The notes under the pieces were generated by a model. The model was not told the DNA's origin and did no database searches. It saw nothing but the letters and a program-made list of their open reading frames with translations. From Minisyncoccia bacterium (GTDB lineage: Bacteria; Patescibacteriota; Minisyncoccia; Phycocordibacterales; Phycocordibacteraceae), in NCBI GenBank assembly GCA_041485695.1, contig JBGPJZ010000001.1, forward strand, positions 129,316 through 193,315: a stretch of 64,000 nucleotides of DNA. The letters are read 5' to 3'. Positions 4,058-51,741 of the stretch are shown piece after piece (the first letter of the stretch is position 1; every line of letters begins with the position of its first letter). The position numbers and the translations under genes are program-made.

Positions 4058-5188
4058 ATGAAAGTCGCGCTCTTTACGGACACATTCGTCCCCCAAGTAA
4101 ATGGGGTTGCAAATGCCGTAGAGCAAACGGCCATCTCACTTTCACAGTTCGGCCATACAGTGCGTGTTTACGCTGTCTCAAAGGATGCTCAAGCGTTGAA
4201 CAAACGTGCGCAAGGGCACTATAGTGTTTTTACTTTCCCTTCAATCCCCGCCATGGTCTACCGTGGCCTGCGTGCGACTCTCCCGCTAGGGATGGCTCTG
4301 CGTGATGTACGGACCTTTGCTCCTGACATTATTCATACGCATACGCCCTTTGGTGCCGGCTGGGAGGCTGTCCGCGCTGCACGCAAACTCGGTATACCGC
4401 TCGTAGGTACGCACCATACTTTTTTTGACCACTACTTGAAGCACGTCGGCCTTGATTTTAGTTTGATGCGTAAGGCAACGTGGAGACTTACGGTCGGATA
4501 CTATAACCGTACCCTTGCAGTCATAAGCCCGACCCGCTCACTTATGGAGGAGATGGTCAAGCACGGTCTTGCTACACCGACCTACCTTATCCCAAACACC
4601 GTTGATACTGCCTGGTTCAACCCACCTATCGAAGCGGCAGAAACTCAAAAACCAGTGATTCTCTACCTTGGCCGCTTAAGCTATGAGAAAAGCGTTGACG
4701 ACGTTCTTCGCGCTTTCGCGCTTATCCGCACGCAGGTTCCCGCGACGCTCTTAATCGTGGGTGACGGCCCAGAACGGGCGTCGCTTGAACACCTTGCGAG
4801 CGAGCTCGGCATCAAGGAGGCAGTACGCTTTACTGGGTTCCTCCATGGCGAAGAACTCGTGCGCGCTCTCCAGAGCGCGTTGCTCTTCATGAGCGCAAGC
4901 AAGAGCGAGAATATGCCGCTTTCAGTACTCGAAGCTATGGCGGTTGGACTCCCGATCGTCGTCGTCGATTCGCTTGGTATGAGCGAATTACTGCGCCCAG
5001 GAGAGAACGCGACCTTGACCCTCCCAGGCAAGCCGGGAGAGCTTGCCGAGGCCGCGCTCGCGCTTATCGCTGATGAGCCGCGACGTGTGCGCTACGCGCA
5101 CGCGTCGCGCGAACACGCTCTGTCATTTAGCCCCGAGGCTGTTATCGAACGCCTCCTTGAAGTGTACGAACGTGCGCGCCGCGCTTAG
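4058..5188 (+). CDS. glycosyltransferase family 4
   Basis: 376 aa; N-terminal MKVALFTDTFVPQVNGVA and C-terminal E-x7-E region typical of GT4 (PimA/MshA-like). Confidence 0.8.
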   Translation: MKVALFTDTFVPQVNGVANAVEQTAISLSQFGHTVRVYAVSKDAQALNKRAQGHYSVFTFPSIPAMVYRGLRATLPLGMALRDVRTFAPDIIHTHTPFGAGWEAVRAARKLGIPLVGTHHTFFDHYLKHVGLDFSLMRKATWRLTVGYYNRTLAVISPTRSLMEEMVKHGLATPTYLIPNTVDTAWFNPPIEAAETQKPVILYLGRLSYEKSVDDVLRAFALIRTQVPATLLIVGDGPERASLEHLASELGIKEAVRFTGFLHGEELVRALQSALLFMSASKSENMPLSVLEAMAVGLPIVVVDSLGMSELLRPGENATLTLPGKPGELAEAALALIADEPRRVRYAHASREHALSFSPEAVIERLLEVYERARRA

Positions 5189-5916
5189 CGGATTACCTTC
5201 CACTCCTTGCTCATCGAGCGGCCGCGTAGCTTGACCGAGATCCCATTGCCGATCCATGTAGCGAGCAAGCGCGGCCAGCCTATCGCGTGGGCGCGCCGTC
5301 CGGTCTGGAGGACGGCGAGAGAGGCCTCGAAACGCGTCCTGCCTACTCGCGAGAGGCGGATGAACATGTCCATATCTTCAGACGCCACGATGCGTTCGTC
5401 ATATCCCCCGAGCTTTTCAAACACCGGTGCAGGTATCATCTGGAATTCTCCCGGGGCATTGGGGCTTCGGAACACGTTATTCGTGACTCGGTTGTACGTA
5501 TTGAATAAAGCCGAGAAAAACCAATCAGCAAAGGTCCGGTACTCAGGGAGCACGTTCAAGGTTACGATAAGGCCGACGAGCCGCGGATTTTCCGTAAAGC
5601 GCGCTACAGCCCGTGTGAAGAAAGCGTCTGTCTCTGGGATGAAGATGTCGCCGTCAATGAATACGAGATACATGCCATGCGCTGCTTTTGCGCCAGCATT
5701 CTTGCCGGCGGCGATAGTCCCGCGCACAGGGCTCGCATGCTCGACTACGACGTCAGCGTAACGGCGGGCGATAGCGACGGTTTGGTCGGTGGAGCCGCCG
5801 TCAGAGACAACGATTTCGTGCGGCAAGGTGAGAGCACCTTTCAGAGCCGAGAGCGTACGGTCGAGGATCTTTTCTTCATTTAACGTCGGTATGACGATAG
5901 AGATAAGAGGCTTCAT
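5185..5916 (-). CDS. glycosyltransferase family 2
   Basis: ISIVIPTLNEE...SDGGSTD...DGD GT2 signature; 4-nt overlap with the upstream DedA gene. Confidence 0.8.
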   Translation of the reverse strand: MKPLISIVIPTLNEEKILDRTLSALKGALTLPHEIVVSDGGSTDQTVAIARRYADVVVEHASPVRGTIAAGKNAGAKAAHGMYLVFIDGDIFIPETDAFFTRAVARFTENPRLVGLIVTLNVLPEYRTFADWFFSALFNTYNRVTNNVFRSPNAPGEFQMIPAPVFEKLGGYDERIVASEDMDMFIRLSRVGRTRFEASLAVLQTGRRAHAIGWPRLLATWIGNGISVKLRGRSMSKEWKVIR

Positions 5917-9331: not shown

Positions 9332-9900
9332 AGCGAGATGAAGCCGAAAAGGTAGACGAACGTGAAGATGAAGATCCAGATGATGTCAAGAAAGTGCCAG
9401 AAGAGAGCCAAGCACATAAGCTTTCGCGTGGTGCCCGGCGTGATGCCTTTGCGAGCGATGTGCGCCATGAGGACGAGCATCCAGAGCGCGCCAAGCGCGA
9501 TATGAGCTCCGTGCGTACCGACCAAGGTAAAGAAGGATGAGAGGAAGGCGCTCCCGCCGGGGCCATGACCCTCAAGAATGAGTTGCCGAAACTCGCTAAG
9601 TTCCATTATGAGGAAGGAGAGGCCTAAGAGGAGTGTGGCCACGAGTGCCGTAAGAGTAAGATTTTTCTTGTGATGACGCGCAGCGAGGAGAGCGAGCCCG
9701 CACGTAAAACTCGAGGTCAAAAGAAGGAGCGTTTCGGTAAGCACGAAGGGGAGAGAAAAAAGGTCTTCAGCCCTTGGCCCGTCAAAGGTCGCGATGTGCA
9801 AGACGGCATACGTAGCGAAGAGGCTGGCGAACAAGACGCAGTCGCTCATCAGGTAGACCCAGAAGCCAAACGTTACTTTTTCTTGAGTGTGTTCGGTCAT
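9328..9900 (-). CDS. cyoC: cytochrome bo3 quinol oxidase subunit III
   Basis: 190 aa; CyoC-like helices ([23 protein letters not shown]...). Confidence 0.85.
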
Positions 9901-11822
9901 GTTAGTTGTTCTTTCGGCACTACGTACTCGATATCGTCATCAAACGAACGAATGATGATGCCAAGAGCAACACCAATGAGCCCCACGATCGCGAGCCACC
10001 ACAGTTGCCAGATCATCCCGAAACCAAAGAGGAAGCTCGCGCCGGCTATGATAAGACCCATGGCGGTATTTTTCGGCATCACGATGTCTTCGACCTCATG
10101 CGCCGCTGTGTGGGGAGCCTGTTTTTGCATCCAAAAAGCGTCCCGCCCGTGTACCTGCGGTATAGTCCTGAAGTTGTAAAAAGGCACGGGGGTCGCGGTC
10201 GACCACTCAAGCGTGCGGCCGCCCCAGGGGTCGCCACCCGCAACGTGCTTTTTCCTCTGCCAGACGCTCACGATAATCTGTAGCGCTTGCAAGCATACGG
10301 CGAGCGCAATGATGCAGGCGCCAACTGCAGCGACGACCAAGAGAGAGTGCCACCCGCTCGCGATGTCGACATAGTCAAGACGCCTCGTCATGCCCATAAG
10401 GCCGAGCGCATAGAGCGGGATAAATGCCGTCACGAACCCGACGATCCAGCACCAAAACGCGTAGGCGCCGATTTTCTCGTTTAGCGTGAAGCCCATGAAC
10501 TTGGGGAACCAGTAGGTAAGCCCGGCAAAAAAGCCGAAGAGGACGCCGCCGATAATCATATTGTGAAAGTGTGCGACCAAAAACAGGCTGTTATGGAGCT
10601 GGAAGTCTACGCCAGGCACTGACATGAGGACTCCCGTCATGCCGCCGATGGTGAACGTGACTAAAAACCCCATGAACCACAGCATCGGGGTTGCAAAGAT
10701 GATGCGCCCGCGAAACATGGTGAAGAGCCAATTGAATATCTTGACGCCAGTGGGGATGGATATGAGCATCGTCATGATGCCGAAAAAGGCGTTGACGTCC
10801 GCCCCCGCGCCCATGGTAAAGAAGTGGTGCAGCCACACGACGAATGAAAGAAGGACGATGAGCATGGTCGCCACGACCATGGAGGTGTAGCCGAACAATC
10901 TCTTTTGCGCGAACACCGGTACGATTTCAGAAAAGACGCCGAACGCGGGCAAGATAAGGATGTACACCTCGGGGTGGCCCCATGCCCAGATAAGGTTGAC
11001 ATAAAGCATTGCGCTGCCGCCGAGGTCGGTAGTGAAAAAGTGCATGTCGAGGAGGCGGTCCAAGGAGAGCATTGCGAGGGTAGCCGTGAGGATGGGGAAG
11101 GCAAAGATAACGAGGAGCATAGAGCCGAGCGCGGTCCAGACGAAAATCGGCATGCGCATCAAGGTCATGCCGGGCGCCCGCATCTTGATGATTGTCGCAA
11201 TAAAATTAACGCCCGAGAGCAAGGTGCCGACCCCCGCTATTTGCAGCGCCCAGATGTAGTAATCGACTCCCACTCCGGGACTGTATGCGAGCTCGGAGAG
11301 GGGAGGGTAGGCGAGCCAGCCGGTCGCTGCGAATTCGCCGAGGACCAGCGAGAGGTTCACGAGAGTAGCCCCGGCAATCGTAAGCCAAAAACTTAGCGAG
11401 TTGAGAAAGGGGTAGGCCACATCCCTGGCTCCGATCTGGAGCGGGACGACGAGGTTCACGAGGCCGAACATAAAGGGCATCGCCACGAAAAAGATCATAA
11501 TCACACCATGGGCGCTAAAGATCTGCGCGAAATGGTCTGGCGTCAAGAAGCCGACCTGGTCTCCGACCGCAAGCGCTTGCTGGCCGCGCATCATCAAGGC
11601 GTCGATGCCTCCGCGCAGAAGCATGACAAACGAGAGGATGATGTACATCGCTCCGATCTTCTTGTGGTCTACCGAGGTAAGCCACTCGCTCCAAAGCCAC
11701 TTCCAGCGTTTAAAGTAAAAGAGCAAACCGACGGCGGCGAGGCCTCCCATGACGACGCTTAATTGACCGAAGGTTTCGATCGGCCCGTGTATAAGCGCGT
11801 CCAGTGTTAGTTTTCCAAACAT
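9897..11822 (-). CDS. cyoB: heme-copper oxidase subunit I (cytochrome bo3 quinol oxidase subunit I)
   Basis: 641 aa; [17 protein letters not shown] and HH..MIIGG ligand motifs of subunit I. Confidence 0.95.
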
Positions 11823-17244: not shown

Positions 17245-17539
17245 GGCTCCGCGGGTAGGAGTCGAACCTACAACCAACTCCTTACATCGATCCTTACGTT
17301 TCCGAAAGGGATGGACTATATCATCACCGGATCTCGGTGCGAGGAGCTTCCAATCTCGACAGTACGTCGGAACTGTACTCCCGTTAGGGATAGTCTCTGA
17401 ACCTTTCCTGTTTTTACAGGACTTGGCTGCTGATTACCCGACAAGGGCTTCCAGCAATTCACCTCGTTATTCGACTCGGATTCCTCCGAGAAGCTGCGTT
17501 AAGCCACAGGGAGCTGCTCTACCATTGAGCTACCGCGGA
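17245..17539 (-). tRNA. tRNA gene interrupted by a group I intron; mature tRNA most parsimoniously tRNA-Asn(GUU)
   Basis: Hand-folded. 5' exon 17506..17539 gives acceptor stem, D-arm GCUC-AAUGGUA-GAGC, anticodon stem GCUCC and loop start CUGU. 3' exon 17245..17284 gives UAA, GGAGU, variable UGGUU, T-arm GUAGG-UUCGACU-CCUAC, acceptor CCGCGGA, discriminator G and CC. Joined anticodon loop is CU-GUU-AA. 5' exon ends in U that can pair with G of the intron GCAG (P1); intron ends in omega-G. Confidence 0.75.
17285..17505 (-). mobile_element. group I self-splicing intron (~221 nt, no internal ORF) in the tRNA anticodon loop
   Basis: Contains recognisable group I core elements: P (GAAUUGCUGGAAG), Q (AAUCAGCAGC), R (GGUUCAGAGACUA) and S (AUGAUAUAGUCC), with P7 GACUA/UAGUC pairing and terminal G. 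Confidence 0.75.
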
Positions 17540-17617: not shown

Positions 17618-17971
17618 ATGATGCGATCATGTAAGAGGCATGGGGTCACGAAATATTTCATGCGCACCGAAGGGTGGTATCGATGCGGGAAATGCGCGTC
17701 GGAAGCTGTCATTGAAAATCGGCGGCGGAAAAAGACAAAACTTGTGGAGAAGTTCGGTGGCAAGTGTACTATATGCGGATACAATAAATACGTTGGAGCT
17801 CTTGATTTTCATCACACGAGTCCTAAGACAAAGAAGTTTGCTCTAAGTGTTAAAGGACTGTCGTATTCATGGAGCTCAATTCTCGAGGAAGCAAAAAAAG
17901 TGCACATTAGTATGCAAGAATTGTCATGCCGAGATTGAAGCGGGTATTACTAATCTCTCCGTCAAAAATTA
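17618..17971 (+). pseudogene. free-standing HNH homing-endonuclease-like gene, interrupted by a frameshift in an A7 run (17893..17899)
   Basis: Frame 1 (17618..17938) encodes the zinc-ribbon plus CTICGY...ALDFHHTSP HNH core and then stops. Removing one A joins ...CTLVCKNCHAEIEAGITNLSVKN (the N..LC..CH HNH tail) ending at the TAA at 17969..17971. GC ~45%, clearly below the window average. Confidence 0.6.
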
Positions 17972-42309: not shown

Positions 42310-42312
42310 CTC

Positions 42313-42348
42313 CACCGTCCGACCTGCTCGGACGGTGGTTTGCTTTTT
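42313..42348 (+). terminator. rho-independent terminator
   Basis: ccaccgtccga-cctgc-tcggacggtgg followed by tttgcttttt. Confidence 0.7.
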
Positions 42349-42376
42349 AGCCCGTAGATGCTAGAGTATAGACATT

Positions 42377-42715
42377 ATGGAAATGGCGGTTATCAAGACC
42401 GGAGGCAAGCAATACGTCGTCCAGAAGGGCGACTCTATTTTCATTGAAAAGCTATCCAATATTTCGCCTGCTGGCAAAGTAGATCTCAAAGCGGGAGACA
42501 AGGTAGTTTTCACCGAGGTACTGTTGGTCGACAACGGCTCGGATACGACGATCGGCGCCCCCACTATCAAAGGCGCCGAGGTGAAGGGGACGGTAGAAGA
42601 ACTCGGCAAAGCTAAGAAGATTGATGTAGTGAAGTACAAGGCCAAGAGCCGTTACTACAAGCGCCGCGGACATCGCCAGCCATTCCTTAAAGTCAAAATC
42701 GATAGTATTTCATAA
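42377..42715 (+). CDS. rplU: 50S ribosomal protein L21
   Basis: MEMAVIKTGGKQYVVQKGD... Confidence 0.95.
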   Translation: MEMAVIKTGGKQYVVQKGDSIFIEKLSNISPAGKVDLKAGDKVVFTEVLLVDNGSDTTIGAPTIKGAEVKGTVEELGKAKKIDVVKYKAKSRYYKRRGHRQPFLKVKIDSIS

Positions 42716-44040
42716 TGCAAATCGGGCGTTGGAATCATCAATCAGGCGGGGGCTCTTCAAGCGGGCACCCACGGAACGGGGGTAAGCCTTCGCAGTTTTC
42801 GCGTGGCAGAGGACATGCTCACCCGGGGCCCACGCGCTTCGGTGGCGCTGGCGGGTATCGTGGTGGCTATCGCGGTGGTGGTGGAAGTCGTGGGGGAGGG
42901 AATCGTGGCGGATTCGGTGGCTCTTTTGGCAAGACCGAGGCGGACCTTACCAAGCTCATCAATAAGGCGGAGATAACCGAAAAGGTGGAGCATTTCGTAC
43001 CCGAGCACCAGTTCATCGATTTTCAGATCGATGAACGGCTTAAGAAGAATATCGTCGCGAAGGGCTACAGCCTACCGACGCCGATTCAAGACCGCGCGAT
43101 TCCGCATATTCTCCGAGGTGAAGATGTCGTTGGCCTTGCAGAGACGGGCACCGGTAAGACGGCAGCCTTCCTCGTTCCGCTTATCGACAAGATTCTTAAC
43201 AATCTTGATGAGCGAGTACTCGTGATGGCGCCGACCCGCGAGCTCGCGGTGCAAATCGAGCGCGAGCTCGCGGGCTTTGCGAAGGGCCTCGGCTTTCGCG
43301 GCATGGTCGCGGTTGGCGGTGCCTCTATCAGCCCGCAGATCGTACAGCTGCGCCACAACCCTTCGTTTGTCATTGGCACGCCGGGCCGACTCAAAGACCT
43401 TATGGAGCGACGCGCGCTTGACCTCTCTGGCTTCGGCACCGTCGTCCTTGATGAAGCCGACCGCATGCTCGATATGGGCTTTATCGATGATATGCGGTTT
43501 ATCTTGAGCAAGATGCGCGCTGAGCGCCACACGCTCTTTTTCTCAGCCACCCTCTCGAGGGATATCGAGAAGCTTATCGGCGACTTTTTAAAGAGCCCTG
43601 CACGCATTTCAGTGAAGACTCGTGACACGCCGAAGAATGTTGACCAGGATGTCGTCCGCATCCCGCGCGGCAAAGACAAATTCGACGTACTCGTTGAACT
43701 GCTCAAGACTCCTGACTTTACCCGCGTGCTCATCTTCGGGCGCACCAAGCACGGGGTGGAGAAGCTCGCGAAGTTGCTCTCGCGCTCGCATATCCACGCG
43801 GAGTCTATCCACGGCAATAAAAGCCACAATGCCCGCCAACGCGCGCTCCAAGACTTTAAAGCAGGAAAGGTGCAGGCTCTTGTCGCAACCGACGTCGCGG
43901 CGCGCGGCCTTGATATCCCGGCTGTCTCGCACGTCATCAACTACGACCTTCCCTCGACCTACGAAGACTATATTCACCGCATCGGCCGCACCGGCAGGGC
44001 GGACATGAAAGGGAAGGCGCTTACCTTCGTACAGGCTTAA
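42715..44040 (+). CDS. DEAD-box ATP-dependent RNA helicase with N-terminal Gly/Arg-rich (RGG) extension
   Basis: Q-motif, AETGTGKT, DEAD, SAT and HRIGRTGR motifs. Residues 1-80 are GGYRGGYRGGGGSRGGGNRGGFGG-type low complexity. Its ATG overlaps the rplU stop (TAATG). Confidence 0.9.
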   Translation: MQIGRWNHQSGGGSSSGHPRNGGKPSQFSRGRGHAHPGPTRFGGAGGYRGGYRGGGGSRGGGNRGGFGGSFGKTEADLTKLINKAEITEKVEHFVPEHQFIDFQIDERLKKNIVAKGYSLPTPIQDRAIPHILRGEDVVGLAETGTGKTAAFLVPLIDKILNNLDERVLVMAPTRELAVQIERELAGFAKGLGFRGMVAVGGASISPQIVQLRHNPSFVIGTPGRLKDLMERRALDLSGFGTVVLDEADRMLDMGFIDDMRFILSKMRAERHTLFFSATLSRDIEKLIGDFLKSPARISVKTRDTPKNVDQDVVRIPRGKDKFDVLVELLKTPDFTRVLIFGRTKHGVEKLAKLLSRSHIHAESIHGNKSHNARQRALQDFKAGKVQALVATDVAARGLDIPAVSHVINYDLPSTYEDYIHRIGRTGRADMKGKALTFVQA

Positions 44041-44060
44041 CTAGGCCATATTTTGCCCTA

Positions 44061-44089
44061 TTGACAATATCAGCGCTTGGGAGTATAAT
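44061..44089 (+). promoter_or_regulatory. consensus sigma70 promoter TTGACA-17-TATAAT
   Basis: ttgacaatatcagcgcttgggagtataat; AGGAGG RBS then ATG 44151. Confidence 0.6.
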
Positions 44090-44150
44090 TTTAAGCAGGT
44101 AGAACATACCGCTGCTTTAGGTTGGTTCATCTCACAGATAGGAGGCTCGC

Positions 44151-44483
44151 ATGACGTTCAATCTTCTTGCAGCAATCTGGTGTTTCGGGAGCATGTTTTT
44201 TTCTCTCGTTGCCGGAATCGTCTTCGCATGGCGTCCTCGTCGCCCAAGCCGCGACCGTCGCCAACGCCAGCTTGGATTATTGATAGGACTCGTCCCGCTC
44301 GTGCTCGGCTTCAGCTTCGCTCTGGCGTTACGTCTCGTCATGGGATTCGACTGGCTGCTTGACTTCGCCATCGGCTCAATGCCTCTCATACTTGCCCTGC
44401 CGGCTGCTATGATTACCGACTGGTGCTTTGGGGGCCACTTGTTCAGCGAAAAGCCGACTCTCGGAGTAACCGGCAAACACTAA
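44151..44483 (+). CDS. hypothetical small membrane protein (110 aa)
   Basis: Three hydrophobic helices; driven by the consensus promoter. Confidence 0.5.
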   Translation: MTFNLLAAIWCFGSMFFSLVAGIVFAWRPRRPSRDRRQRQLGLLIGLVPLVLGFSFALALRLVMGFDWLLDFAIGSMPLILALPAAMITDWCFGGHLFSEKPTLGVTGKH

Positions 44484-44501
44484 GGGCTTGGGGAGGGACA
44501 T

Positions 44502-44600
44502 ATGTTCAGTATGATTCATGCATACTTGACACCGGTCGTCGAAGCAGTGCTTGCGATTGGGTGCCTTGGTGCCTTGGTATTCGTAAGGCGCTTTCGATAA
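44502..44600 (+). CDS. putative 32-aa hydrophobic peptide (MFSMIHAYLTPVVEAVLAIGCLGALVFVRRFR)
   Basis: GGGGAGGG RBS 5 nt upstream; single TM helix plus basic C-terminus. Below the ORF-track cutoff, found by manual translation. Confidence 0.35.
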   Translation: MFSMIHAYLTPVVEAVLAIGCLGALVFVRRFR

Positions 44601-44620
44601 TTCGCACCCACGACACAACA

Positions 44621-44655
44621 AGGACCGCTTCAGGAAACTGAAGCGGTCCTTTTCA
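44621..44655 (+). terminator. rho-independent terminator (12-bp stem)
   Basis: aggaccgcttcag-gaaa-ctgaagcggtcct followed by tttt. Confidence 0.7.
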
Positions 44656-45255
44656 CGTCTCCTTGCGGTTCGTGAGCGCGGCGCGCAAGGTCTCGGCGTC
44701 GGAGTACTCAAGCTCGCTGCCGGTAGCAAGGCCGCGGCCAAGCGCGGAGACCCGTACCTTTTCACGATAAGGCCGAATGAGTTCGCGCACACGGTCTGCT
44801 GTATGCTCGCCCTCGGAGGTCGCCGAGCAGGCCAGCACGATCTCTTTGAGCCCGTTCTTGAATCGTTTTTCAACGACACGTATCAAATCTTTCTCGCGTA
44901 TCGCCCCCTTGCCTGAAAGGGTCAGGACGCCTCCCAAAACGAAGTAGCGGCCTTTATACGTACCCGCACGCTCGATTGCCGCCAAGTCCTGGTCTTTTTC
45001 AACGATCATGAGGAGTCCGTCGTCTCGCGAGGTGTCGGCGCACTGTTTACATACGGGGCCGCTGCCGTTCGCATAGCGCATGCACTCCGGGCATTGGCGC
45101 ACGTCTTTACCGAGCGCGGTTAAGAGCTCGGCAAGCGCCATGCGCTCGGAGGCTGGAGCCGATAACAGGTAATACACGAAGCGCTTTCCCTGACGCGGCC
45201 CTATCCCGGGTAGCCGAGCGAATGCTTGCGAGAGATCTTCGATGCGGTCAGCCAT
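44653..45255 (-). CDS. recR: recombination protein RecR
   Basis: HhH N-terminus (RLPGIGPRQGKR), C4 zinc finger and Toprim domain. Confidence 0.95.
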   Translation of the reverse strand: MADRIEDLSQAFARLPGIGPRQGKRFVYYLLSAPASERMALAELLTALGKDVRQCPECMRYANGSGPVCKQCADTSRDDGLLMIVEKDQDLAAIERAGTYKGRYFVLGGVLTLSGKGAIREKDLIRVVEKRFKNGLKEIVLACSATSEGEHTADRVRELIRPYREKVRVSALGRGLATGSELEYSDAETLRAALTNRKET

Positions 45256-45258
45256 GTC

Positions 45259-46614
45259 TTAAAACGCTCGCTCGAAGTCGCCGTACCCGGCTTTATCGAC
45301 CGGCATGAAGGTCGCCCGCTTCTCATCAAAATAAAGCTCAACATGGCCGGTGGGACCGTTGCGATGCTTCTCGATGAGAATCTCGGCAATGTTCGGCTTA
45401 GCACTCTCAGGGTTGCGCTTGTCATCGCGGTGGATGAACATGACCACGTCCGCATCTTGCTCGATAGAGCCCGAATCACGGAGGTCGGAGAGGCGAGGCT
45501 TGCCGCCGCGCTGCTCGACGGCGCGCGAGAGCTGCGAGAGTGCTAACACGGGGACCTCGAGTTCGCGAGCTAGTGATTTAAGCGACCGCGAGATCTCGGT
45601 TACTTGCTGCACGAGGGAGTCAGAGGCCTTGGTCGAGGTGGGTGCCATGAGCTGGAGGTAGTCGACCACGATGAGCCCTATGCCCTTTTCGCGCTTCAAA
45701 CGCCGCGCCACGGCCCTCATCGAGAGGATGTTGTTGCCTGGCTTGTCGTCGATGTAGATGGGCGCCTTGGAAAGGGTCTCCAAGGCATCCCGAATCTTCG
45801 CGAAGTCCTCTTCAGCACGGATAGCTCCGGTACGGATATTCCAGGCATTTACGTATGACTCCGCGGCAAGCATGCGGTCGACGAGCTGCTCCGAGCTCAT
45901 TTCAAGGGAAAAGATGCCGACTGGCACGTTGTAGCGCACGGCTGCGTTCCGTGCGATATCAAGCGCAAGAGAGGTCTTACCCATCGAAGGCCGTGCGGCG
46001 AGTATGACGAGGTCAGACTTATGGAGGCCGGAGAGCAGGGTATCGAGATCATGAAAACCGGTCGGTACTCCGCGAATGCCGCCCTCTTTTTTTGAAAGCG
46101 TCTCGAGGCGGTCCCACGCGTCATGAAGCTTGTCGGCGATAGCGACAAATTTATGCGCCGCAATCGCATTCCCGATGGCATAGATTTTCTTTTCGGCCTC
46201 GTCGAGGACCTCGTGCGTGTCGCGCGCCTCATCGTAGGCCGTTTCAGTGATTTCATACGAAGTGTCTATCAAAGAGCGCAAGATGTGTTTTTTCGAGACG
46301 AGATCCGCATATGAAGTGAAATTACCGGGGGAGGGGGCAGAGCCTGCAAGCTCTGCAAGGTAGCTCCGCCCGCCGGCGCGCTCCAACGTCCCTTGATTCT
46401 GCAGTCGTTCAGAGAGTGTCAGCTGGTCAATCGGTTCGCCGCGTGTCGAAAGCTCGCGCATCGCTTCATAAATGATGCGATGCTTCTCGGCATAGAACGA
46501 GTCCGGCTGGATGAGGTCGCCGACATCGTGGATAGCATCTGGCTTAAGGAGGAGCGCGCCGAGGAGCGCCCGTTCGGAATCAAGACTTTGAGGAGGAACT
46601 CGATCGGCAGCCAT
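45259..46614 (-). CDS. dnaB: replicative DNA helicase DnaB
   Basis: 451 aa; N-terminal DnaB domain plus RecA-like core with Walker A GxxxGKT. Confidence 0.95.
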   Translation of the reverse strand: MAADRVPPQSLDSERALLGALLLKPDAIHDVGDLIQPDSFYAEKHRIIYEAMRELSTRGEPIDQLTLSERLQNQGTLERAGGRSYLAELAGSAPSPGNFTSYADLVSKKHILRSLIDTSYEITETAYDEARDTHEVLDEAEKKIYAIGNAIAAHKFVAIADKLHDAWDRLETLSKKEGGIRGVPTGFHDLDTLLSGLHKSDLVILAARPSMGKTSLALDIARNAAVRYNVPVGIFSLEMSSEQLVDRMLAAESYVNAWNIRTGAIRAEEDFAKIRDALETLSKAPIYIDDKPGNNILSMRAVARRLKREKGIGLIVVDYLQLMAPTSTKASDSLVQQVTEISRSLKSLARELEVPVLALSQLSRAVEQRGGKPRLSDLRDSGSIEQDADVVMFIHRDDKRNPESAKPNIAEILIEKHRNGPTGHVELYFDEKRATFMPVDKAGYGDFERAF

Positions 46615-46629
46615 GAGGCTGATTTTCCC

Positions 46630-48093
46630 TTAATCGGCGCGCCGGGTCAATACGGGGCCCTTGGCCCCGTCGTCCACATGATATCCACTCTTCGCAATAT
46701 CCTCGCGTAGGCGGTCAGCCGTCTTAAAATCTCGCGCTTTGCGCGCAGCCTCTCTCTCTTTCACCAATCCCCGAACTGCATCGGACACGTCATCTGTCTC
46801 GAGCGGAGCTATCGCTGCCGGAGGGTCAACAAGAGAGAGGCCGAGCTGCCTGTCTGCGCTTTCAAACAGGCCCCATTTCTGCTCTACAGTAAGGTCTTCG
46901 TTCTTTATAGCCTCCCAGAGTATGCCTATCGCCTGGGGCGTGGAGAGGTCATCGCGCATGGCAGCGATGAATCGATCGAGCTCGGCAGAACGCTGCGTTT
47001 TCCCCTCTGATTCCTCTTTCAACCCACGTGCATGACGCCACAAGCGGAGAAGAGCCTCGCTTGCCGCAGCAATTGCGTTGTCGGAGTAGGAGAGTTGGGT
47101 GCGATAGTGTGCCTGGAGGAAGAAATAGCGGAGTACGAGCGGGTGATAGCCCTTCGCCACGATGTCCGGGAGATAGACCACGTTCCCGGTCGACTTTGAA
47201 ACCTTCTCTCCCTGCATAGTGAGAAAGGCGTTATGCATCCAGTAACGCACGAAGGTGCGGCCGTTCGCTGCCTCTGATTGGGCGATCTCGTCATTGTGGT
47301 GGATGGAGGCCAAGTCCTCGCCTCCAGTGTGGATGTCGATCTCAATCCCGAGGAGCGCGCGCGACATTGCTGAACATTCGAGGTGCCAGCCCGGGTTACC
47401 ACGCCCCCAAGGCGAGTCCCATTGTTGGAGATCGTGCGGTTTTGCTGTGCGCCAGAGAGCGAAGTCGCTCGGGTGCCGCTTGCCAGCTACAGGCGCTACG
47501 CGCGCGATGGCGCTCTCTTTAATGTCAGCGCCGTGCCGATTGCCGAGCGCTCCGTACGTAGGGAATTTGCTCGTGTCAAAGTAAAGCCCCTCGGGGGTGC
47601 GGTAGGCGAACCCCTTTTCTTCAAGCGTCTTCGCTAGCGCTATCTGTTCTTTGATGTATTCGGTCGCACGGGGGAAGAGGATGTGCTCGATATCGACGTT
47701 GAGGTCGTCAAGGTCTTCGATGAACAGTTTCGCATATCGTGACGCAATCTCGCCCGGTGATTTTTTCTCATGACCGGCGCCAACGTTCATTTTGTCTTCA
47801 CCCTCATCGCCATCTCCGACCAGGTGGCCGACGTCGGTAATGTTGATGACCCGGCGCACGCGATAGCCAGCACTAAGCAATACGCGCGCAATAGTATCTG
47901 AAAAGACTGCCGGGCGCAGATTCCCGATATGCTGCTGGCTGTAGACGGTCGGCCCGCAGGAGTACATCGAGACTTCGCCGGGCTTCAGCGGTACGAAAAG
48001 CTCCTTATTGCTGCTTAAGGTGTTGTGAAAGAAGATGCGCGCCACCGCTCCAGCGCCGGGCTTGTTACTGAAAAGACTCGTGAACCATCCCAT
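46630..48093 (-). CDS. cysS: cysteinyl-tRNA synthetase
   Basis: HIGN and KMSKS (VSKSTGN) motifs. ORF track extends to 48126; start uncertain by ~10 codons. Confidence 0.9.
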   Translation of the reverse strand: MGWFTSLFSNKPGAGAVARIFFHNTLSSNKELFVPLKPGEVSMYSCGPTVYSQQHIGNLRPAVFSDTIARVLLSAGYRVRRVINITDVGHLVGDGDEGEDKMNVGAGHEKKSPGEIASRYAKLFIEDLDDLNVDIEHILFPRATEYIKEQIALAKTLEEKGFAYRTPEGLYFDTSKFPTYGALGNRHGADIKESAIARVAPVAGKRHPSDFALWRTAKPHDLQQWDSPWGRGNPGWHLECSAMSRALLGIEIDIHTGGEDLASIHHNDEIAQSEAANGRTFVRYWMHNAFLTMQGEKVSKSTGNVVYLPDIVAKGYHPLVLRYFFLQAHYRTQLSYSDNAIAAASEALLRLWRHARGLKEESEGKTQRSAELDRFIAAMRDDLSTPQAIGILWEAIKNEDLTVEQKWGLFESADRQLGLSLVDPPAAIAPLETDDVSDAVRGLVKEREAARKARDFKTADRLREDIAKSGYHVDDGAKGPVLTRRAD

Positions 48094-48100
48094 ACCAGGC

Positions 48101-49018
48101 CTAGAGCCAACGTTTGCGGGCGACAAAGAGCGCGACGATGCCCGAGACGCACAGCATGATACCGACGACTATCCAGAAAGCGTGGGGATTCCGCATAAAC
48201 GGCACGTCGGCGACGTTCATTTCGAAAACATTGGCGATAAGCCCGAGCGGCAAGACGATGAAGCTGATGACCGTCAAGGTCTTCATGATCTCGTTCTGGC
48301 TCGCGGTCAACAGCGACATGTTGCTCTCACGAAGTTCGGTAGCAATCGATCGCAAGGTCGCGATTGTGTGCCCCGTCTGCGCATGCTGGCCGAGAATCCG
48401 TTCCACCCTCGTCTTGAACGAGGAGCCGAATACGCCCTTGCGCATAAGCTCATCGAGGAAGAGCTTAAGAGGGTCCTCCTCGGCAGCAATCGAAGCCTCG
48501 AGATGGAGGAACTCGCGGCTGATTTCAGAGATTGCGCGTATCGCTTCGCGCTCATTGCCTGCGAACATGTCGTGCTCGACCCGCTCTAAGCGCTTACCTG
48601 CATGCGACCCCTCAAGGCGGATGTTCCCAAAGAGGTGGTTGAGGATGAGTTCCAATAAAGCGTCCGCTCCGACTCTTGCATGGCCGTCAATAAGCGCCCC
48701 GGCTTCGAGAAGCTTGCGAAGCTCGTGAACCGGAACGACCACTTCATAGCGTACGGTAAGCACGAAGTGCGCCCCGACGACGAAATCAACCTCCTGTTCG
48801 GCCGGCCGGCCGTCAAGTACCGCCGCAGAAGGGAAGTGGAGCACCAAGAGCGCCGCTGACTCTTCGTAAAGTACGACCGGGAGCGGGGAAGGGGAGATGA
48901 GCTCATCAAGGATGCGTCCGCCAAACCCGAGCTCGCGAGCCACATCGCGCACCTCATCGGCCGTAGGGTTCTCAAGGTCTATCCACTGGCCGTTACTCTC
49001 GCCAAAACGAAATACCAT
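48101..49018 (-). CDS. corA: CorA-family Mg2+/Co2+ transporter with variant loop motif (EMN instead of GMN)
   Basis: Two C-terminal TM helices; loop ANVFEMNVADVPFM aligns to AGIYGMNFEYMPEL. Confidence 0.8.
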   Translation of the reverse strand: MVFRFGESNGQWIDLENPTADEVRDVARELGFGGRILDELISPSPLPVVLYEESAALLVLHFPSAAVLDGRPAEQEVDFVVGAHFVLTVRYEVVVPVHELRKLLEAGALIDGHARVGADALLELILNHLFGNIRLEGSHAGKRLERVEHDMFAGNEREAIRAISEISREFLHLEASIAAEEDPLKLFLDELMRKGVFGSSFKTRVERILGQHAQTGHTIATLRSIATELRESNMSLLTASQNEIMKTLTVISFIVLPLGLIANVFEMNVADVPFMRNPHAFWIVVGIMLCVSGIVALFVARKRWL

Positions 49019-49074
49019 GTGAAAAGCATACCACGCGTGGTGCAGGTACCTATCGTGATGCTATACTGCCCGCA

Positions 49075-50301
49075 ATGGATTCAGGCCTCACTAGGCGGGC
49101 TGCGGTAGCGGCGCTCATCGCCGTTGTTTCATTTGGGGGAGGGTTCCTTGCGGGCGGCAGCGGGAGTAGCGCAAGCATTGTCTCGCACTTGCCGCTCCTC
49201 GGAGACGGCCTTGATGCGACTCCATCCTCTACCGATCTCGGCGATTTTTGGAAGGCATGGAACGCACTCTCAAGCGACTTCGTGGAAACGCATGCCTCGA
49301 CGACATTGCCGGGAGAGAAAGACAAGCTGTGGGGGGCGATTAGCGGCCTCGCGGCGTCCTACAAAGACCCGTACACCGTCTTCTTCCCGCCTGTGGAATC
49401 GAAAAAATTTCAAGAGAACATCCAAGGTAATTTCGGCGGTATCGGCATTGAAATCGATACCAAGGACGGGATTTTGACCGTCATTGCTCCCTTAAAGGGG
49501 ACTCCCGCCGAAGCTGCTGGTATCAAAGCAGGAGACGCTATCGTGGCGATTGACGGCAAGCCGACCGATAGCATCACGGTTGAGGCGGCGGTGAATCAGA
49601 TTCGCGGCCCTGTGGGTACGTCAGTCACGCTCACCCTGTCTCGCGCGAAGAAAGCTTTCGACGTCAAGGTTGAGCGGGCCACCATACAGGTGCCGGAGAT
49701 TGATGACGGATTGGATGTAGCAAGCAGCGTGTATCATATCGCCCTGTTTGAGTTCACCTCGACCTCGGCGGACCTCTTTACTCAAGCCTTTGAACGTTTT
49801 AAGAAGTCGGGCTCCCACCTCCTTGTCATTGATGTGCGTGGCAACCCGGGCGGGTACCTCGAATCCGCGGTCGAGATTGCGAGCCACTTCCTCCCCAAGG
49901 GTACGACCATCGTGACTGAAGACCATCGCGGCAAGGCTGAGAATGAGGTCCATCGGAGCCTCGGAGACAACGATGTCCCAAGTGGGACGAAAGTCGTCGT
50001 GCTTATCGACCAAGGTTCAGCCTCTGCCTCTGAGATTCTTGCGGGCGCCCTCCAAGATAACGGGGTTGCAAAGCTCATTGGCATGCGTTCATTCGGCAAA
50101 GGCTCGGTGCAGCAGTTAATCCAGATCGGCGAAGGGTCTTTGAAAGTTACGGTCGCACGCTGGCTTACGCCATCGGGCACATCTATAGCAGACGGCGGAT
50201 TGACTCCGGATATCAAAGTCGACCGCACCATCGACGATTTCAACGCAAAGAAAGACCCTCAAATGGACCGCGCTAAAGAGTTTTTGACGACGGGTAAATA
50301 A
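49075..50301 (+). CDS. ctpA: S41-family C-terminal processing peptidase
   Basis: PDZ domain (GIKAGDAIVAIDGKP) plus S41 core (IDVRGNPGGYL, catalytic Ser/Lys). Confidence 0.85.
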   Translation: MDSGLTRRAAVAALIAVVSFGGGFLAGGSGSSASIVSHLPLLGDGLDATPSSTDLGDFWKAWNALSSDFVETHASTTLPGEKDKLWGAISGLAASYKDPYTVFFPPVESKKFQENIQGNFGGIGIEIDTKDGILTVIAPLKGTPAEAAGIKAGDAIVAIDGKPTDSITVEAAVNQIRGPVGTSVTLTLSRAKKAFDVKVERATIQVPEIDDGLDVASSVYHIALFEFTSTSADLFTQAFERFKKSGSHLLVIDVRGNPGGYLESAVEIASHFLPKGTTIVTEDHRGKAENEVHRSLGDNDVPSGTKVVVLIDQGSASASEILAGALQDNGVAKLIGMRSFGKGSVQQLIQIGEGSLKVTVARWLTPSGTSIADGGLTPDIKVDRTIDDFNAKKDPQMDRAKEFLTTGK

Positions 50302-50320
50302 GCGTGTATGATAGGTTCAC

Positions 50321-50764
50321 ATGAAAGTTGTAATGCTGAAAGATGTGAAGGGCGTGGGGCGCGCCCATGACACCATCGACGCCTCTGATGGGTACGCGCT
50401 TAACTTCTTGATACCACGCAAATATGCCGTCTCAGCGACTCCAGCCGCGCTCAAATCTGCCGATGAGCGCAAGAAAAAAGTGAATCTTGACCACGAGCTA
50501 CAACTCAAACTAGTTGCTCAAAATATCGCCACCTTGGCTGATGCGCGCATCGTCATTAAGATGAAGGTCAATGAAAAGGGCCATTTGTACGACGCAGTCG
50601 GTGCACCCGAAATAAGTCTAGCGGCTAAGAGGGAAGCGGGCGTCGATTTGCCGGAAGAGGCCATCAAGCTCGAGAAGCCGATCAAAGAACTCGGCACCTT
50701 TGAGGTTCCCGTCTCTGCCGGAGAGAATTTCGGCAAATTCTCCATCATCATCGAAGCCGAGTGA
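50321..50764 (+). CDS. rplI: 50S ribosomal protein L9
   Basis: MKVVMLKDVKGVGRAHDTIDASDGYALNFLIPRKYA... Confidence 0.9.
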   Translation: MKVVMLKDVKGVGRAHDTIDASDGYALNFLIPRKYAVSATPAALKSADERKKKVNLDHELQLKLVAQNIATLADARIVIKMKVNEKGHLYDAVGAPEISLAAKREAGVDLPEEAIKLEKPIKELGTFEVPVSAGENFGKFSIIIEAE

Positions 50765-50807
50765 CTTTTTGACTCTCTTCTCTAATTCGCGCGAATAGGC
50801 GAATAGT

Positions 50808-50836
50808 TTGACAGTTGGATTTTCTTGGAGTTTAAT
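50808..50836 (+). promoter_or_regulatory. sigma70-like promoter TTGACA-17-TTTAAT
   Basis: ttgacagttggattttcttggagtttaat; followed at 50873..50880 by a strong SD (AAGGAGGT) and GTG at 50887. Confidence 0.5.
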
Positions 50837-51027
50837 GGTGCTGGACGCATCTATCGCGTAAAAATATCAACGAAGGAGGTGACATCGTGAACATCAAAAC
50901 AGGGACAAGTGCCGGTCTCTTTTTTTTGTGATGATTGCCTTTGGGTTGGCGGCGGCTACTCCATGGGCTTTTGTTGCGAGATGGAGCAAGGTGCGCAAGC
51001 TTCCGAACGTAGTTTAAAAAATCAAAC

Positions 51028-51066
51028 AGCCCGCGCGGGAAACCGCGCGGGCTGAATCTTTTTTAA
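51028..51066. terminator. bidirectional rho-independent terminator (serves rpmA on the minus strand)
   Basis: cagcccgcgcgg-gaaa-ccgcgcgggctg with T-runs on both strands. Confidence 0.7.
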
Positions 51067-51335
51067 ACAACGCTTGCGATTTTTTTGGAGACAATGCGGC
51101 CATCGTAGCGCGTAAAGCGTTTGGAGCGGAAGGAGACTTTACCGGTAGCGATGGAGAAAAGCGTGTGGTCTTTGCCGACCTTCACGTTCTTGCCGGCCTC
51201 GATCTTGGTGCCGCGCTGACGGGCGATAATCATGCCGGGGCGGGCAGAGGCGCCGTCAGCGAGCTTAACCCCGAGATATTTCGGGTTTGAGTCGTTGAGG
51301 TTCTTTGCTGATCCGCCAGCTTTGGTTGATGCCAT
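51063..51335 (-). CDS. rpmA: 50S ribosomal protein L27
   Basis: [24 protein letters not shown]...RQRGT; not adjacent to rplU. Confidence 0.9.
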
Positions 51336-51354
51336 AGTGGTATAGTTTTACCCA

Positions 51355-51741
51355 ATGACTATAGCAGGGCTCATTGCTCGAGGCAAGACGTTCATAGAGG
51401 GCGCTCCGAGAGATCTTTTCGTCGTTTTGATACTGATTTTGTCGTGTTCCGCGAGCTTCGGCCTTGGCGTCTTGGCCGGCCGAGATTCGGGGGTAGGAGA
51501 GGGGAGCAGCTTCTCCATTTCTCAAATCCCCCTCGCTGCCGCTACGAACCCCGCAAGCATCGCTACGACGAGTATGCCGACGGGCGGCCAGGTCGTCGCT
51601 TCAAAAAACGGCACGAAATATTTTCTTCCCTGGTGCGGCGGTGCGAAACAGATTAGCGATGCAAACAAAATATGGTTTGCATCTAAAGAAGAGGCCGAAG
51701 CCAAGGGATATCAACCCGCTCTCAACTGCAAAGGGTTATAA
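51355..51741 (+). CDS. hypothetical membrane-anchored protein with small Cys-containing C-terminal domain
   Basis: N-terminal TM helix; C-terminal KYFLPWCGGAKQISDANKIWFASKEEAEAKGYQPALNC resembles a small Cys-bearing domain, family not identified. Confidence 0.4.
   Translation: MTIAGLIARGKTFIEGAPRDLFVVLILILSCSASFGLGVLAGRDSGVGEGSSFSISQIPLAAATNPASIATTSMPTGGQVVASKNGTKYFLPWCGGAKQISDANKIWFASKEEAEAKGYQPALNCKGL

Follow-up and report, generated by a model that had tools for sequence, protein, structure and literature searches.

Why is rplU, the gene of ribosomal protein L21, followed in a patescibacterial genome by the gene of a DEAD-box RNA helicase with a glycine/arginine-rich tail at its N-terminus, and what might this helicase do there? 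We addressed this question in a stretch of 64,000 nucleotides (nt) from a Minisyncoccia bacterium (contig JBGPJZ010000001.1, positions 129,316 to 193,315 of the forward strand), which is called the window in the following and in which all positions of the text are counted. A sequence-only reading of the locus had identified the genes of L21, of the helicase and, at a distance and on the opposite strand, of L27 (rpmA), and had proposed that the first two are translationally coupled and that the helicase is a dedicated helper in the assembly of the 50S subunit. Pfam and NCBIfam matches agree with all three gene identities. The open reading frame (ORF) 42377..42715 on the plus strand encodes an L21 protein of 112 amino acids (aa; PF00829, E 2.9e-31; TIGR00061, 99.5 bits versus a cut-off of 43.7), and ORF 42715..44040 on the same strand, located directly 3' of rplU, encodes the helicase with 441 aa plus a stop codon. 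Judged by gene linkage and sequence comparison, a role in ribosome biogenesis is the best-supported function of this helicase, and we give it a slightly better than even chance of being correct.

The helicase possesses a complete canonical core. The gathering scores of Pfam were taken as thresholds for membership in the DEAD-box family, and both RecA-like domains scored above them (PF00270 at residues 122-286, E 2.8e-47, 161 bits versus 26; PF00271 at residues 321-429, E 3.8e-34, 117.7 bits versus 23.5). The full set of DEAD-box motifs was found, i.e. motifs Q (GYSLPTPIQ), I (AETGTGKT), Ia (PTRELA), Ib (TPGR), II (DEAD, within VLDEADRM), III (SAT, within FSAT), V (TDVAARGLD) and VI (HRIGRTGR), with most of the motif residues being invariant in an alignment of 42 sequences. 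Since the protein ends 13 residues past motif VI, it has no C-terminal extension. The best match in the PDB was CshA of Geobacillus (5ivl_B, E 2.7e-82, query residues 102-439), followed by Vasa (2db3), the match of which starts at query residue 88. None of the curated ortholog models of NCBIfam considered (CshA, RhlE, DbpA, SrmB, CsdA and RhlB) fits the helicase, and the matches cover the core only: the CshA model NF053631 scored 390.8 bits (cut-off 646) and was matched only over its positions 1-342 of 434, the RhlE model NF007882 scored 355.7 bits (cut-off 743), and the models of DbpA, SrmB, CsdA/DeaD and RhlB reached 288-324 bits versus cut-offs of 507-989, the helicase of the window also lacking a C-terminal domain such as the RNA-binding one of DbpA and CsdA. 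The window belongs to a Kaiserbacteria-like Parcubacterium. The closest named relatives of the helicase are proteins from metagenome-assembled genomes of Kaiserbacteria, Paceibacterota and Parcubacteria; a database protein 100% identical to the helicase of the window (P0001) was named RhlE by the Joint Genome Institute, and so were many of its relatives.

The tail precedes this core. Residues 1-85 comprise 28 Gly and 9 Arg, and the segment up to the LINK motif contains four RGG triplets and has a net charge of +10 with 35% Gly and 11% Arg. In an AlphaFold2 model calculated from the 42-sequence alignment, residues 1-98 had a predicted local distance difference test score (pLDDT) below 50 and no secondary structure, and were followed by a normal core of alternating α/β elements; the mean pLDDT was 63, the alignment being shallow and of low diversity, and the model was used for the disorder call alone. 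Being of low complexity, rich in Arg and Gly, net-basic and predicted to be disordered, the segment represents a tail of the RGG/RG type. The tail consists of three parts, namely a conserved cap, an RGG/YG spacer that evolves fast, and an anchor that is again conserved (..GFGxFGxTEAE..F/L-x-NK). For the comparison with relatives, we used 80 loci from species-representative genomes with 10-kb flanks each; clade counts of 37 refer to the 36 closest of these loci (L001-L035 and L047) plus the window. In these 37 genomes, the cap follows the consensus MQ[IV]GRWNHQ with invariant M1, Q2, G4, R5, W6, H8 and Q9, and the underlying codons are swapped synonymously (Arg5: CGT in 19, AGA in 15, CGC in two and CGA in one genome; Gly4: GGG, GGA or GGC; Gln9: CAA or CAG). 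The motif GRWxHQ occurs in no other protein of 82 fetched loci and the window, only at the N-terminus of the helicase. The variable stretch behind the cap (residues 10-62) shows a mean pairwise identity of 25% among the 37 helicases, and tail length and net charge range from 60 to 104 aa and from +7 to +13 across the clade. The anchor has the consensus RRGGFGxFGETEAEISKFMNK, and its F/L-[IVM]-NKA element was also found in distant Parcubacteria.

Since the cap is conserved as protein while its codons change synonymously, the tail is translated, and on this sequence evidence the RGG tail is part of the protein, as the sequence-only reading had assumed. That reading had also named the observation that would speak against it, i.e. 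a start codon behind the RGG region. In this case, translation would begin for example at GTG codon 91 (position 42985), the RGG region would lie outside the mature protein, and the long ORF would be a mistaken annotation caused by a stretch with a high GC content and few stop codons. Indeed, other frames are open over the G-rich stretch as well (ORFs 42757..43008 on the minus and 42803..42976 on the plus strand), such that the open frame alone is weak evidence for a translated tail, and GTG codon 91 is preceded by a GGAG at a distance of 12 nt. However, this codon, which is the only candidate, is not conserved, and relatives have a Met in KFMNK that is absent from the window. Moreover, the first nine helicase codons are kept as protein in 37 of 37 genomes, the anchor is 71% conserved, and in none of the 80 loci does the length-variable tail lose its frame or its basic character. 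We thus regard a start at GTG codon 91 as ruled out by the protein-level conservation of the N-terminal nonapeptide, and an RGG region outside of the mature protein as hardly credible.

The position of the tail is not peculiar to this organism, as the sequence-only reading might suggest, but the rule in its lineage. All 80 Parcubacteria loci encode a helicase with a basic N-terminal extension, which ranges from 43 to 167 aa. In addition, we searched 1.84 billion representatives clustered at 50% identity with phmmer and analysed the best 150 clusters, counting extensions of at least 30 aa as N-tails. Among these best 150 clusters, 77 had an N-tail (median 108 aa) and no C-tail, and 68 of them ranked in the top 85; 51 had a C-tail (median 169 aa) and no N-tail, and 47 of them were found at ranks 86-150. 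These nearest C-tailed homologues are of the canonical bacterial type, which supports the earlier statement on the C-terminal position of such tails in bacterial DEAD-box proteins such as CsdA and RhlE. Two of the N-tailed proteins were found in contexts outside the candidate phyla radiation (CPR), one on an 8.1-Mb contig beside TPR/CHAT, MacB and PadR genes and one in a cluster of which a member is encoded on a 1.9-Mb contig. In terms of these sequence comparisons, a basic N-tail combined with the lack of a C-tail is a family trait of a large helicase lineage that extends to large non-CPR genomes.

Within their tails, individual clades of this lineage have conserved islands of their own, including AYEAGMRFALEGGFKRP in a clade in which the helicase is linked to bipA (see below), and such islands may be short docking motifs. 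The bipA-linked clade (L037-L046, L050, L055, L064) has an island AYEAGMRFALE(G/N)GFKRP halfway along the tail, and another clade (L049, L052, L065, L066, L072) has an island MATTYIVRKNSRNDLxDRPGYERFA at the N-terminus.

With regard to the gene order, L21 is encoded immediately upstream of the helicase and on the same strand in all 36 closest loci, the helicases of which are 64-83% identical to that of the window. Together with the window, the order rplU-helicase was thus found in 37 of 37 clade loci, and it recurred in four further contigs from other samples (L083, L084/L085, L086), which have a block YqeY-RmuC-(x)-L21-helicase-RecR-DnaB-CysS in common. No L21 gene was detected within 10 kb in any of the 44 more distant Parcubacteria loci, in agreement with a search using a hidden Markov model built from 34 L21 sequences. 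The rplU-helicase arrangement is therefore real and old within the clade. Since the same order recurs in genome loci of the clade and in contigs from other samples, an assembly artefact is ruled out, and the related objection that relatives might have a canonical operon fails too, as no relative was found with rpmA near rplU. The whole neighbourhood is syntenic, so that the conserved adjacency alone is no proof of a functional linkage. The L21 of the window itself contains an insertion of 7 aa (..LSNISPAGKVDLKAGDK..); L21 has 105 aa in almost every relative, among them the closest ones (L084, L086).

The tight junction of the two genes is less widely conserved than their order. In the window, the ATG of the helicase overlaps with the stop codon of rplU as had been noted before: the final A of the stop codon TAA (42713-42715) doubles as the first base of the ATG (42715-42717), which gives a TAATG at 42713-42717. 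Such a distance of -1 nt was found only in the window and in L026 among the 37 clade loci, whereas the gap amounts to 7-15 nt in L001, L009 and L015 and to 54-254 nt in the other 31 loci. Among the closest database relatives, L084/L085 and L086 share the 1-nt overlap and L083 has a gap of about 50 nt. Altogether, a spacer of about 50-254 nt with a hairpin and a T-run is present in 30 of the 36 related loci and in L083, and the window has lost this spacer entirely. By sequence comparison, the overlap arose secondarily in a sub-group. We detected no convincing canonical -35/-10 promoter in the spacers of the relatives, where a TATATT is often located only 4 nt from the ATG. Likewise, Rfam searches at the junction, upstream of rplU and in the spacer of a relative returned no L21 leader, riboswitch or small RNA at the gathering threshold or at E <= 1, apart from one match at chance level. 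The spacers of most relatives (L003, L006, L010, L011, L019, L020, L022 and others; e.g. L003 9945..10000) contain a conserved TTCGAGAGCAGACyT and, downstream of it, a small T-run-bearing GC hairpin and an AT-rich leader without Shine-Dalgarno (SD) sequence (TTTATTTAnCTAGCnA..). In the complete Kaiserbacteria chromosome of L005, the 254-nt spacer (9747..10000) folds as one near-perfect long hairpin of -93.8 kcal/mol, which looks like an inserted palindromic element or one resembling a miniature inverted-repeat transposable element.

In order to find recurrent neighbours of the helicase outside the clade, flanking genes were called in the 44 non-Kaiserbacteria loci and scanned in bulk with Pfam, followed by a targeted tblastn search for bipA. 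Genes of TypA/BipA, of thioredoxin/DsbA-like proteins and of S16 recurred among the neighbours. A bipA/typA gene lies at most 2 kb from the helicase in 19 of these 44 loci (among L037-L046, L049, L055, L060, L064-L066 and L069-L072), 15 times upstream on the same strand, three times immediately downstream on the same strand and once on the opposite strand; in L070 and L071, bipA starts 8-15 nt after the helicase stop codon. The S16 gene rpsP is located directly upstream of the helicase in L036 and L042. BipA, a GTPase that binds the ribosome, is required for the maturation of the 50S subunit at low temperature; both ΔbipA and ΔdeaD mutants accumulate pre-50S particles, with additive effects in the double mutant, and the ΔbipA mutant shows an induction of DeaD (PMC8313970). 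SrmB and DeaD/CsdA are the classical DEAD-box proteins of 50S assembly (PMC6736130). What best supports the idea of a role in ribosome biogenesis is that, depending on the lineage, the helicase gene is linked to rplU, to bipA (in two orientations) or to rpsP, and the part of the earlier proposal that ties the helicase to the ribosome or its 50S subunit is thereby independently supported. The notion of a dedicated helper is not, and the position behind rplU alone does not show a functional linkage, because the gene block is syntenic as a whole.

How such a helicase might work can be outlined from its architecture. The unit comprises rplU and a helicase whose only accessory region is the disordered basic N-tail of about 75-98 aa. 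This tail could serve as a non-specific RNA-tethering, annealing or condensing arm that holds the non-processive core on a large structured RNA, with the cap MQ[IV]GRWNHQ as a candidate docking motif. For comparison, the RGG tail of CsdA drives condensates associated with rDNA (bioRxiv 10.64898/2026.09.17.752289). Nascent 23S rRNA or pre-50S particles are the probable main substrate, a proposal we make because the genes of this helicase family are linked to rplU here and to the gene of a 50S-assembly GTPase, bipA/typA, in sister clades. A bolder version, in our view an improbable one, would see in these proteins a ribosome-biogenesis helicase lineage of the Patescibacteria's own, in which the RGG arm has moved to the N-terminus, the tip motifs (MQ[IV]GRWNHQ; AYEAGMRFALEGGFKRP) dock the enzyme to a defined position of the nascent 50S subunit or to a partner protein, for example BipA or L21, and the overlap genomes produce the helicase in a fixed ratio with L21 by reinitiation of 70S ribosomes on a leaderless mRNA. 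If true, ultra-small cells, which have very few ribosomes, would possess a minimal and hard-wired module for assembly.

A number of points weigh against a ribosome-biogenesis function. The linkage to ribosomal genes is guilt by association, and the bipA linkage may stem from only two or three ancestral events; the conserved adjacency to rplU may likewise reflect the general synteny of compact genomes and not selection, and the hairpin with T-run interposed between the two genes in most relatives suggests an at least partial transcriptional uncoupling. The best-scoring named families, CshA (a degradosome helicase) and RhlE, are generalists, and if the protein were the sole helicase of the genome, it would have to be multifunctional. 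One DEAD-box gene was found in the 64-kb window. Taken together, such observations could be explained by an RNA helicase with general tasks, possibly the only one encoded in a minimal genome, which is active in mRNA decay, in translation and in RNA folding, and whose position after rplU is due to neutral compaction and synteny. The best named matches (390.8 bits for CshA, 5ivl with E 2.7e-82, and RhlE), the syntenic gene block in the relatives, the common short gene overlaps and the variable neighbourhood outside the clade (thioredoxin/DsbA, ABC transporters, oxidoreductases) are in line with this explanation. The repeated linkage to ribosome-related genes in different arrangements, i.e. to rplU, to bipA upstream, to bipA downstream and to S16, speaks against it, and we consider it less likely than not, keeping in mind that the two views are not exclusive, as 50S assembly can be the main load of a generalist.

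The claim of translational coupling was assessed on the basis of the signals around the two start codons. Upstream of the helicase ATG, no GGAG, GAGG or AGGA was found between positions -20 and -4. The junction thus has the structure of a translationally coupled pair, i.e. a stop/start overlap and a downstream start without an SD sequence of its own. However, 4-nt overlaps occur in seven pairs of same-strand neighbours in the window; short overlaps are common in this compact genome, and the overlap of rplU and helicase by itself is therefore not unusual. Moreover, SD-like tetramers precede only 10 of 71 ORFs of the window. Instead, TAnnnT hexamers show a sharp peak 6 nt before the start codons (11 of 52 genes) and are present at a distance of 5-11 nt in 22 of the 52 genes, where a TG extension is frequent, at a background of about 0.6 per position. 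This pattern suggests that leaderless mRNAs are widespread in the genome; a full-text search of the literature surfaced no link between leaderless mRNAs and CPR. Examples of TAnnnT hexamers are found at the genes starting at or spanning 6938, 25839, 31412, 49075, 50321, 51355, 52772-54106(-) and 55392-56531(-). The predicted promoter of rplU belongs to the same type: its extended -10 element (TG at 42359-42360, hexamer at 42362-42367) stops 9 nt short of the ATG, and the layout TTGyCT / TGCTAnAnT / 9 nt is found before rplU in essentially all relatives for which there is sequence, a few having TGTTA or a weaker -35. Transcription from this element predicts an rplU mRNA that is leaderless or nearly so.

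On such an mRNA, the SD-less start of the helicase could be reached by termination and reinitiation at TAATG, from an internal -10 element TAGTAT giving rise to a second leaderless mRNA, or by both. If the helicase were made from its own leaderless transcript via TAGTAT (42703-42708), there would be no translational coupling, and TAATG would be a by-product of the loss of the spacer. This possibility, to which we assign appreciable but clearly less than even weight, agrees with the peak of TAnnnT 6 nt before starts and the scarcity of SD motifs, since TAGTAT is located at exactly this modal distance from the helicase ATG, and with the terminator-like hairpin between the genes of most relatives, where the helicase would be started independently. 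It also agrees with the codon usage at the end of rplU: the Ser in the last codons is encoded by AGY in the overlap genomes (window, L026, L084, L086), which creates TAG(Y)AT, and by TCN in 27 genomes with spacer, AGY being used in three of the latter kind (Fisher p ~5e-4, a naive value that ignores shared ancestry). On the other hand, TAGTAT has neither a TG extension nor a recognisable -35, the overlap genome L086 has GAGAGTATT and thus no TAnnnT at that spacing, AGY is also found in the three non-overlap genomes, and the overlap genomes may represent a single clade; besides, an internal promoter and reinitiation can coexist. In summary, of the coupling proposed by the sequence-only reading, the overlap and the lack of an SD sequence hold for the window, but the overlap is not conserved, as 30 of 36 relatives and L083 have a spacer, and it competes with TAGTAT 6 nt upstream of the start. 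Translational coupling of rplU and the helicase is plausible, if confined to a sub-clade and not the ancestral state according to these alignments.

The third element of the locus, rpmA, lies on the opposite strand as had been described, with a clear match of its product to the L27 family. A canonical rplU-rpmA operon, in which a co-oriented rpmA directly follows rplU or is separated from it by ysxB, is absent. In 21 of the related loci, L27 is encoded on the opposite strand as well, at about 6-9.5 kb downstream from the helicase, and in six loci with full 10-kb flanks it is farther away; no L27 match was found nearer than about 6 kb to the rplU-helicase pair in these loci, and L27 never adjoins rplU. 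The distant Parcubacterium L079 has the pair of rpmA and the neighbouring small ORF as well (small ORF 5163..5603; BLASTP E 4e-9 between the small ORFs), without rplU nearby. The geometry of the window would be compatible with a single inversion between rplU and rpmA that broke an ancestral operon and brought the helicase start to the rplU stop by accident, given that rpmA is located about 8.3 kb downstream on the opposite strand, facing rplU, and that inverting 42716..51335 recreates rplU-rpmA. However, the far-side junction of such an inversion, where rpmA diverges from ORF 51355..51741, already exists in L079. The solo rpmA thus predates the rplU-helicase junction, which makes a single inversion very unlikely, and the displacement of rpmA, which had been presented together with the helicase pairing, turns out to be older than and unrelated to it. 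The small membrane protein encoded by 51355..51741 on the plus strand has a Cys-containing C-terminal domain with a weak NCBIfam 'sunset' match (E 5e-4), and only 19 nt (51336..51354) separate the start codons of rpmA and this ORF in the window.

The features of the locus are collected in Table 1.

Table 1 Position of the features of the rplU-helicase unit and of rpmA in the window.
Feature	Position	Strand	Remarks
Intrinsic terminator of upstream gene	42312..42348	+	11-bp stem with 8 GC pairs, then TTTGCTTTTT; 5' boundary of the rplU-helicase unit
Predicted rplU promoter	42340..42367	+	-35-like TTGCTT at 42340-42345, 16 nt, extended -10 TGcTAGAGT
rplU (L21)	42377..42715	+	Start MEMAVIKTGG versus MEVAVIKTGG in relatives
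-10-like TAGTAT	42703..42708	+	In the last rplU codons GAT AGT ATT, 6 nt before the helicase ATG; candidate internal promoter
TAATG junction	42713..42717	+	Also in L026, L084/L085 and L086
Cap nonapeptide MQIGRWNHQ	42715..42741	+	Residues 1-9; 91% mean pairwise identity in 37 genomes
Gly/Arg/Ser-rich low-complexity tail with RGG/YRGG repeats	42742..42930	+	Residues 10-72; fast-evolving, length-variable
Anchor/linker RGGFGGSFGKTEADLTKLINKA	42904..42969	+	Residues 64-85 (63-84 in the clade alignment); ties tail to core; 71% mean identity
Alternative start, GTG codon 91	42985..42987	+	Sole in-frame candidate before the core; GGAG 12 nt upstream
Helicase core, two RecA-like domains	43009..44037	+	Residues 99-441; 84% mean identity in the clade
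Perfect sigma-70 promoter TTGACA-17-TATAAT	44061..44089	+	12/12 matches; serves the next gene; 3' boundary of the unit
rpmA (L27)	51063..51335	-	PF01016, E 9.7e-29; solo, ~8.3 kb downstream; convergent with rplI 50321..50764, divergent from small membrane ORF 51355..51741

The gene following the sigma-70 promoter at the 3' boundary (44151..44483) is a small membrane ORF with a clear AGGAGG as SD sequence, unlike the majority of the genes, which are SD-less and poor in -35 elements. Elsewhere in the window, the gene of tRNA-Asn(GUU) at 17245..17539 on the minus strand carries a group I intron (about 221 nt; RF00028, 77.7 bits) in its anticodon loop and was found by ARAGORN only with the intron option switched on. 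An extended -10 element (TGTGTATAAT) is present near this gene at 17566-17557, and a Cys-rich, possibly HNH-like ORF (17618..17938) is located next to it.

In bacterial ribosome assembly and RNA decay, RNA is remodelled mainly by DEAD-box helicases that have basic disordered tails, and to our knowledge those studied in bacteria, including RhlE, CsdA and CshA, all carry such a tail at the C-terminus. Our literature search for DEAD-box proteins in CPR/Patescibacteria or for rplU-helicase operons found nothing relevant. RhlE proteins (RhlE of E. coli, RhlE1/RhlE2 of P. aeruginosa and the Caulobacter protein) resemble the helicase of the window in combining a DEAD-box core with a disordered, basic extension rich in Arg and Gly and in lacking a folded RNA-binding domain, and the RhlE model of NCBIfam was the second-best match, over core residues 109-439. 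However, the basic C-terminal extension of RhlE is missing: the helicase of the window has its basic tail at the N-terminus, nothing after the core, and a conserved cap that RhlE lacks. CshA, the degradosome helicase of Bacillus, Geobacillus and Staphylococcus, is the best match in both NCBIfam and the PDB. It is a generalist that also affects ribosome biogenesis. As the protein of the window ends 13 residues after motif VI, it lacks the C-terminal region by which CshA dimerises and binds RNase Y.

With CsdA/DeaD and SrmB of E. coli, the helicase would share its proposed job, the remodelling of 23S rRNA in large-subunit assembly, and with CsdA also a tail of the RGG type. The tails of CsdA and SrmB are C-terminal, though, and their models scored 288-312 bits versus cut-offs of 507-989; we know of no linkage of csdA/deaD or srmB to rplU or bipA in E. 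coli. DeaD is functionally tied to BipA (PMC8313970), and bipA adjoins genes of window-type helicases in other Parcubacteria. The same layout of a disordered RG/RGG-rich N-terminal region followed by the core is found in the eukaryotic proteins Vasa/DDX4, LAF-1 and Ded1/DDX3, which usually add C-terminal extensions; a common origin of the tails is not expected. With regard to the operon, rplU-rpmA of E. coli and rplU-ysxB-rpmA of B. subtilis are similar to the window in that rplU leads a short unit headed by a ribosomal protein gene and has its own promoter. They differ in the second cistron, which is a helicase gene in the window, whereas rpmA stands alone about 8.3 kb away on the other strand and neither an L21 leader of Rfam nor another known RNA element is present. 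The regulation of rplU-rpmA in E. coli is the subject of a review by Aseev et al. 2016, to which we refer as it is cited in PMC6736130.

The locus extends current understanding along known themes and does not overturn it. The linkage to rplU and bipA points to large-subunit biogenesis in organisms that are not yet genetically tractable, and the apparently wide use of leaderless promoters bears on the calling of gene starts and the prediction of operons in Patescibacteria. The helicases themselves form a large uncharacterised lineage, which is Parcubacteria-wide and includes some large-genome bacteria, and thus offer a natural experiment on whether the position of the tail matters. Compared to the known systems, the combination of a DEAD-box helicase with a basic disordered tail is a familiar theme, and what is new is the uncharacterised placement of this tail at the N-terminus together with a conserved cap.

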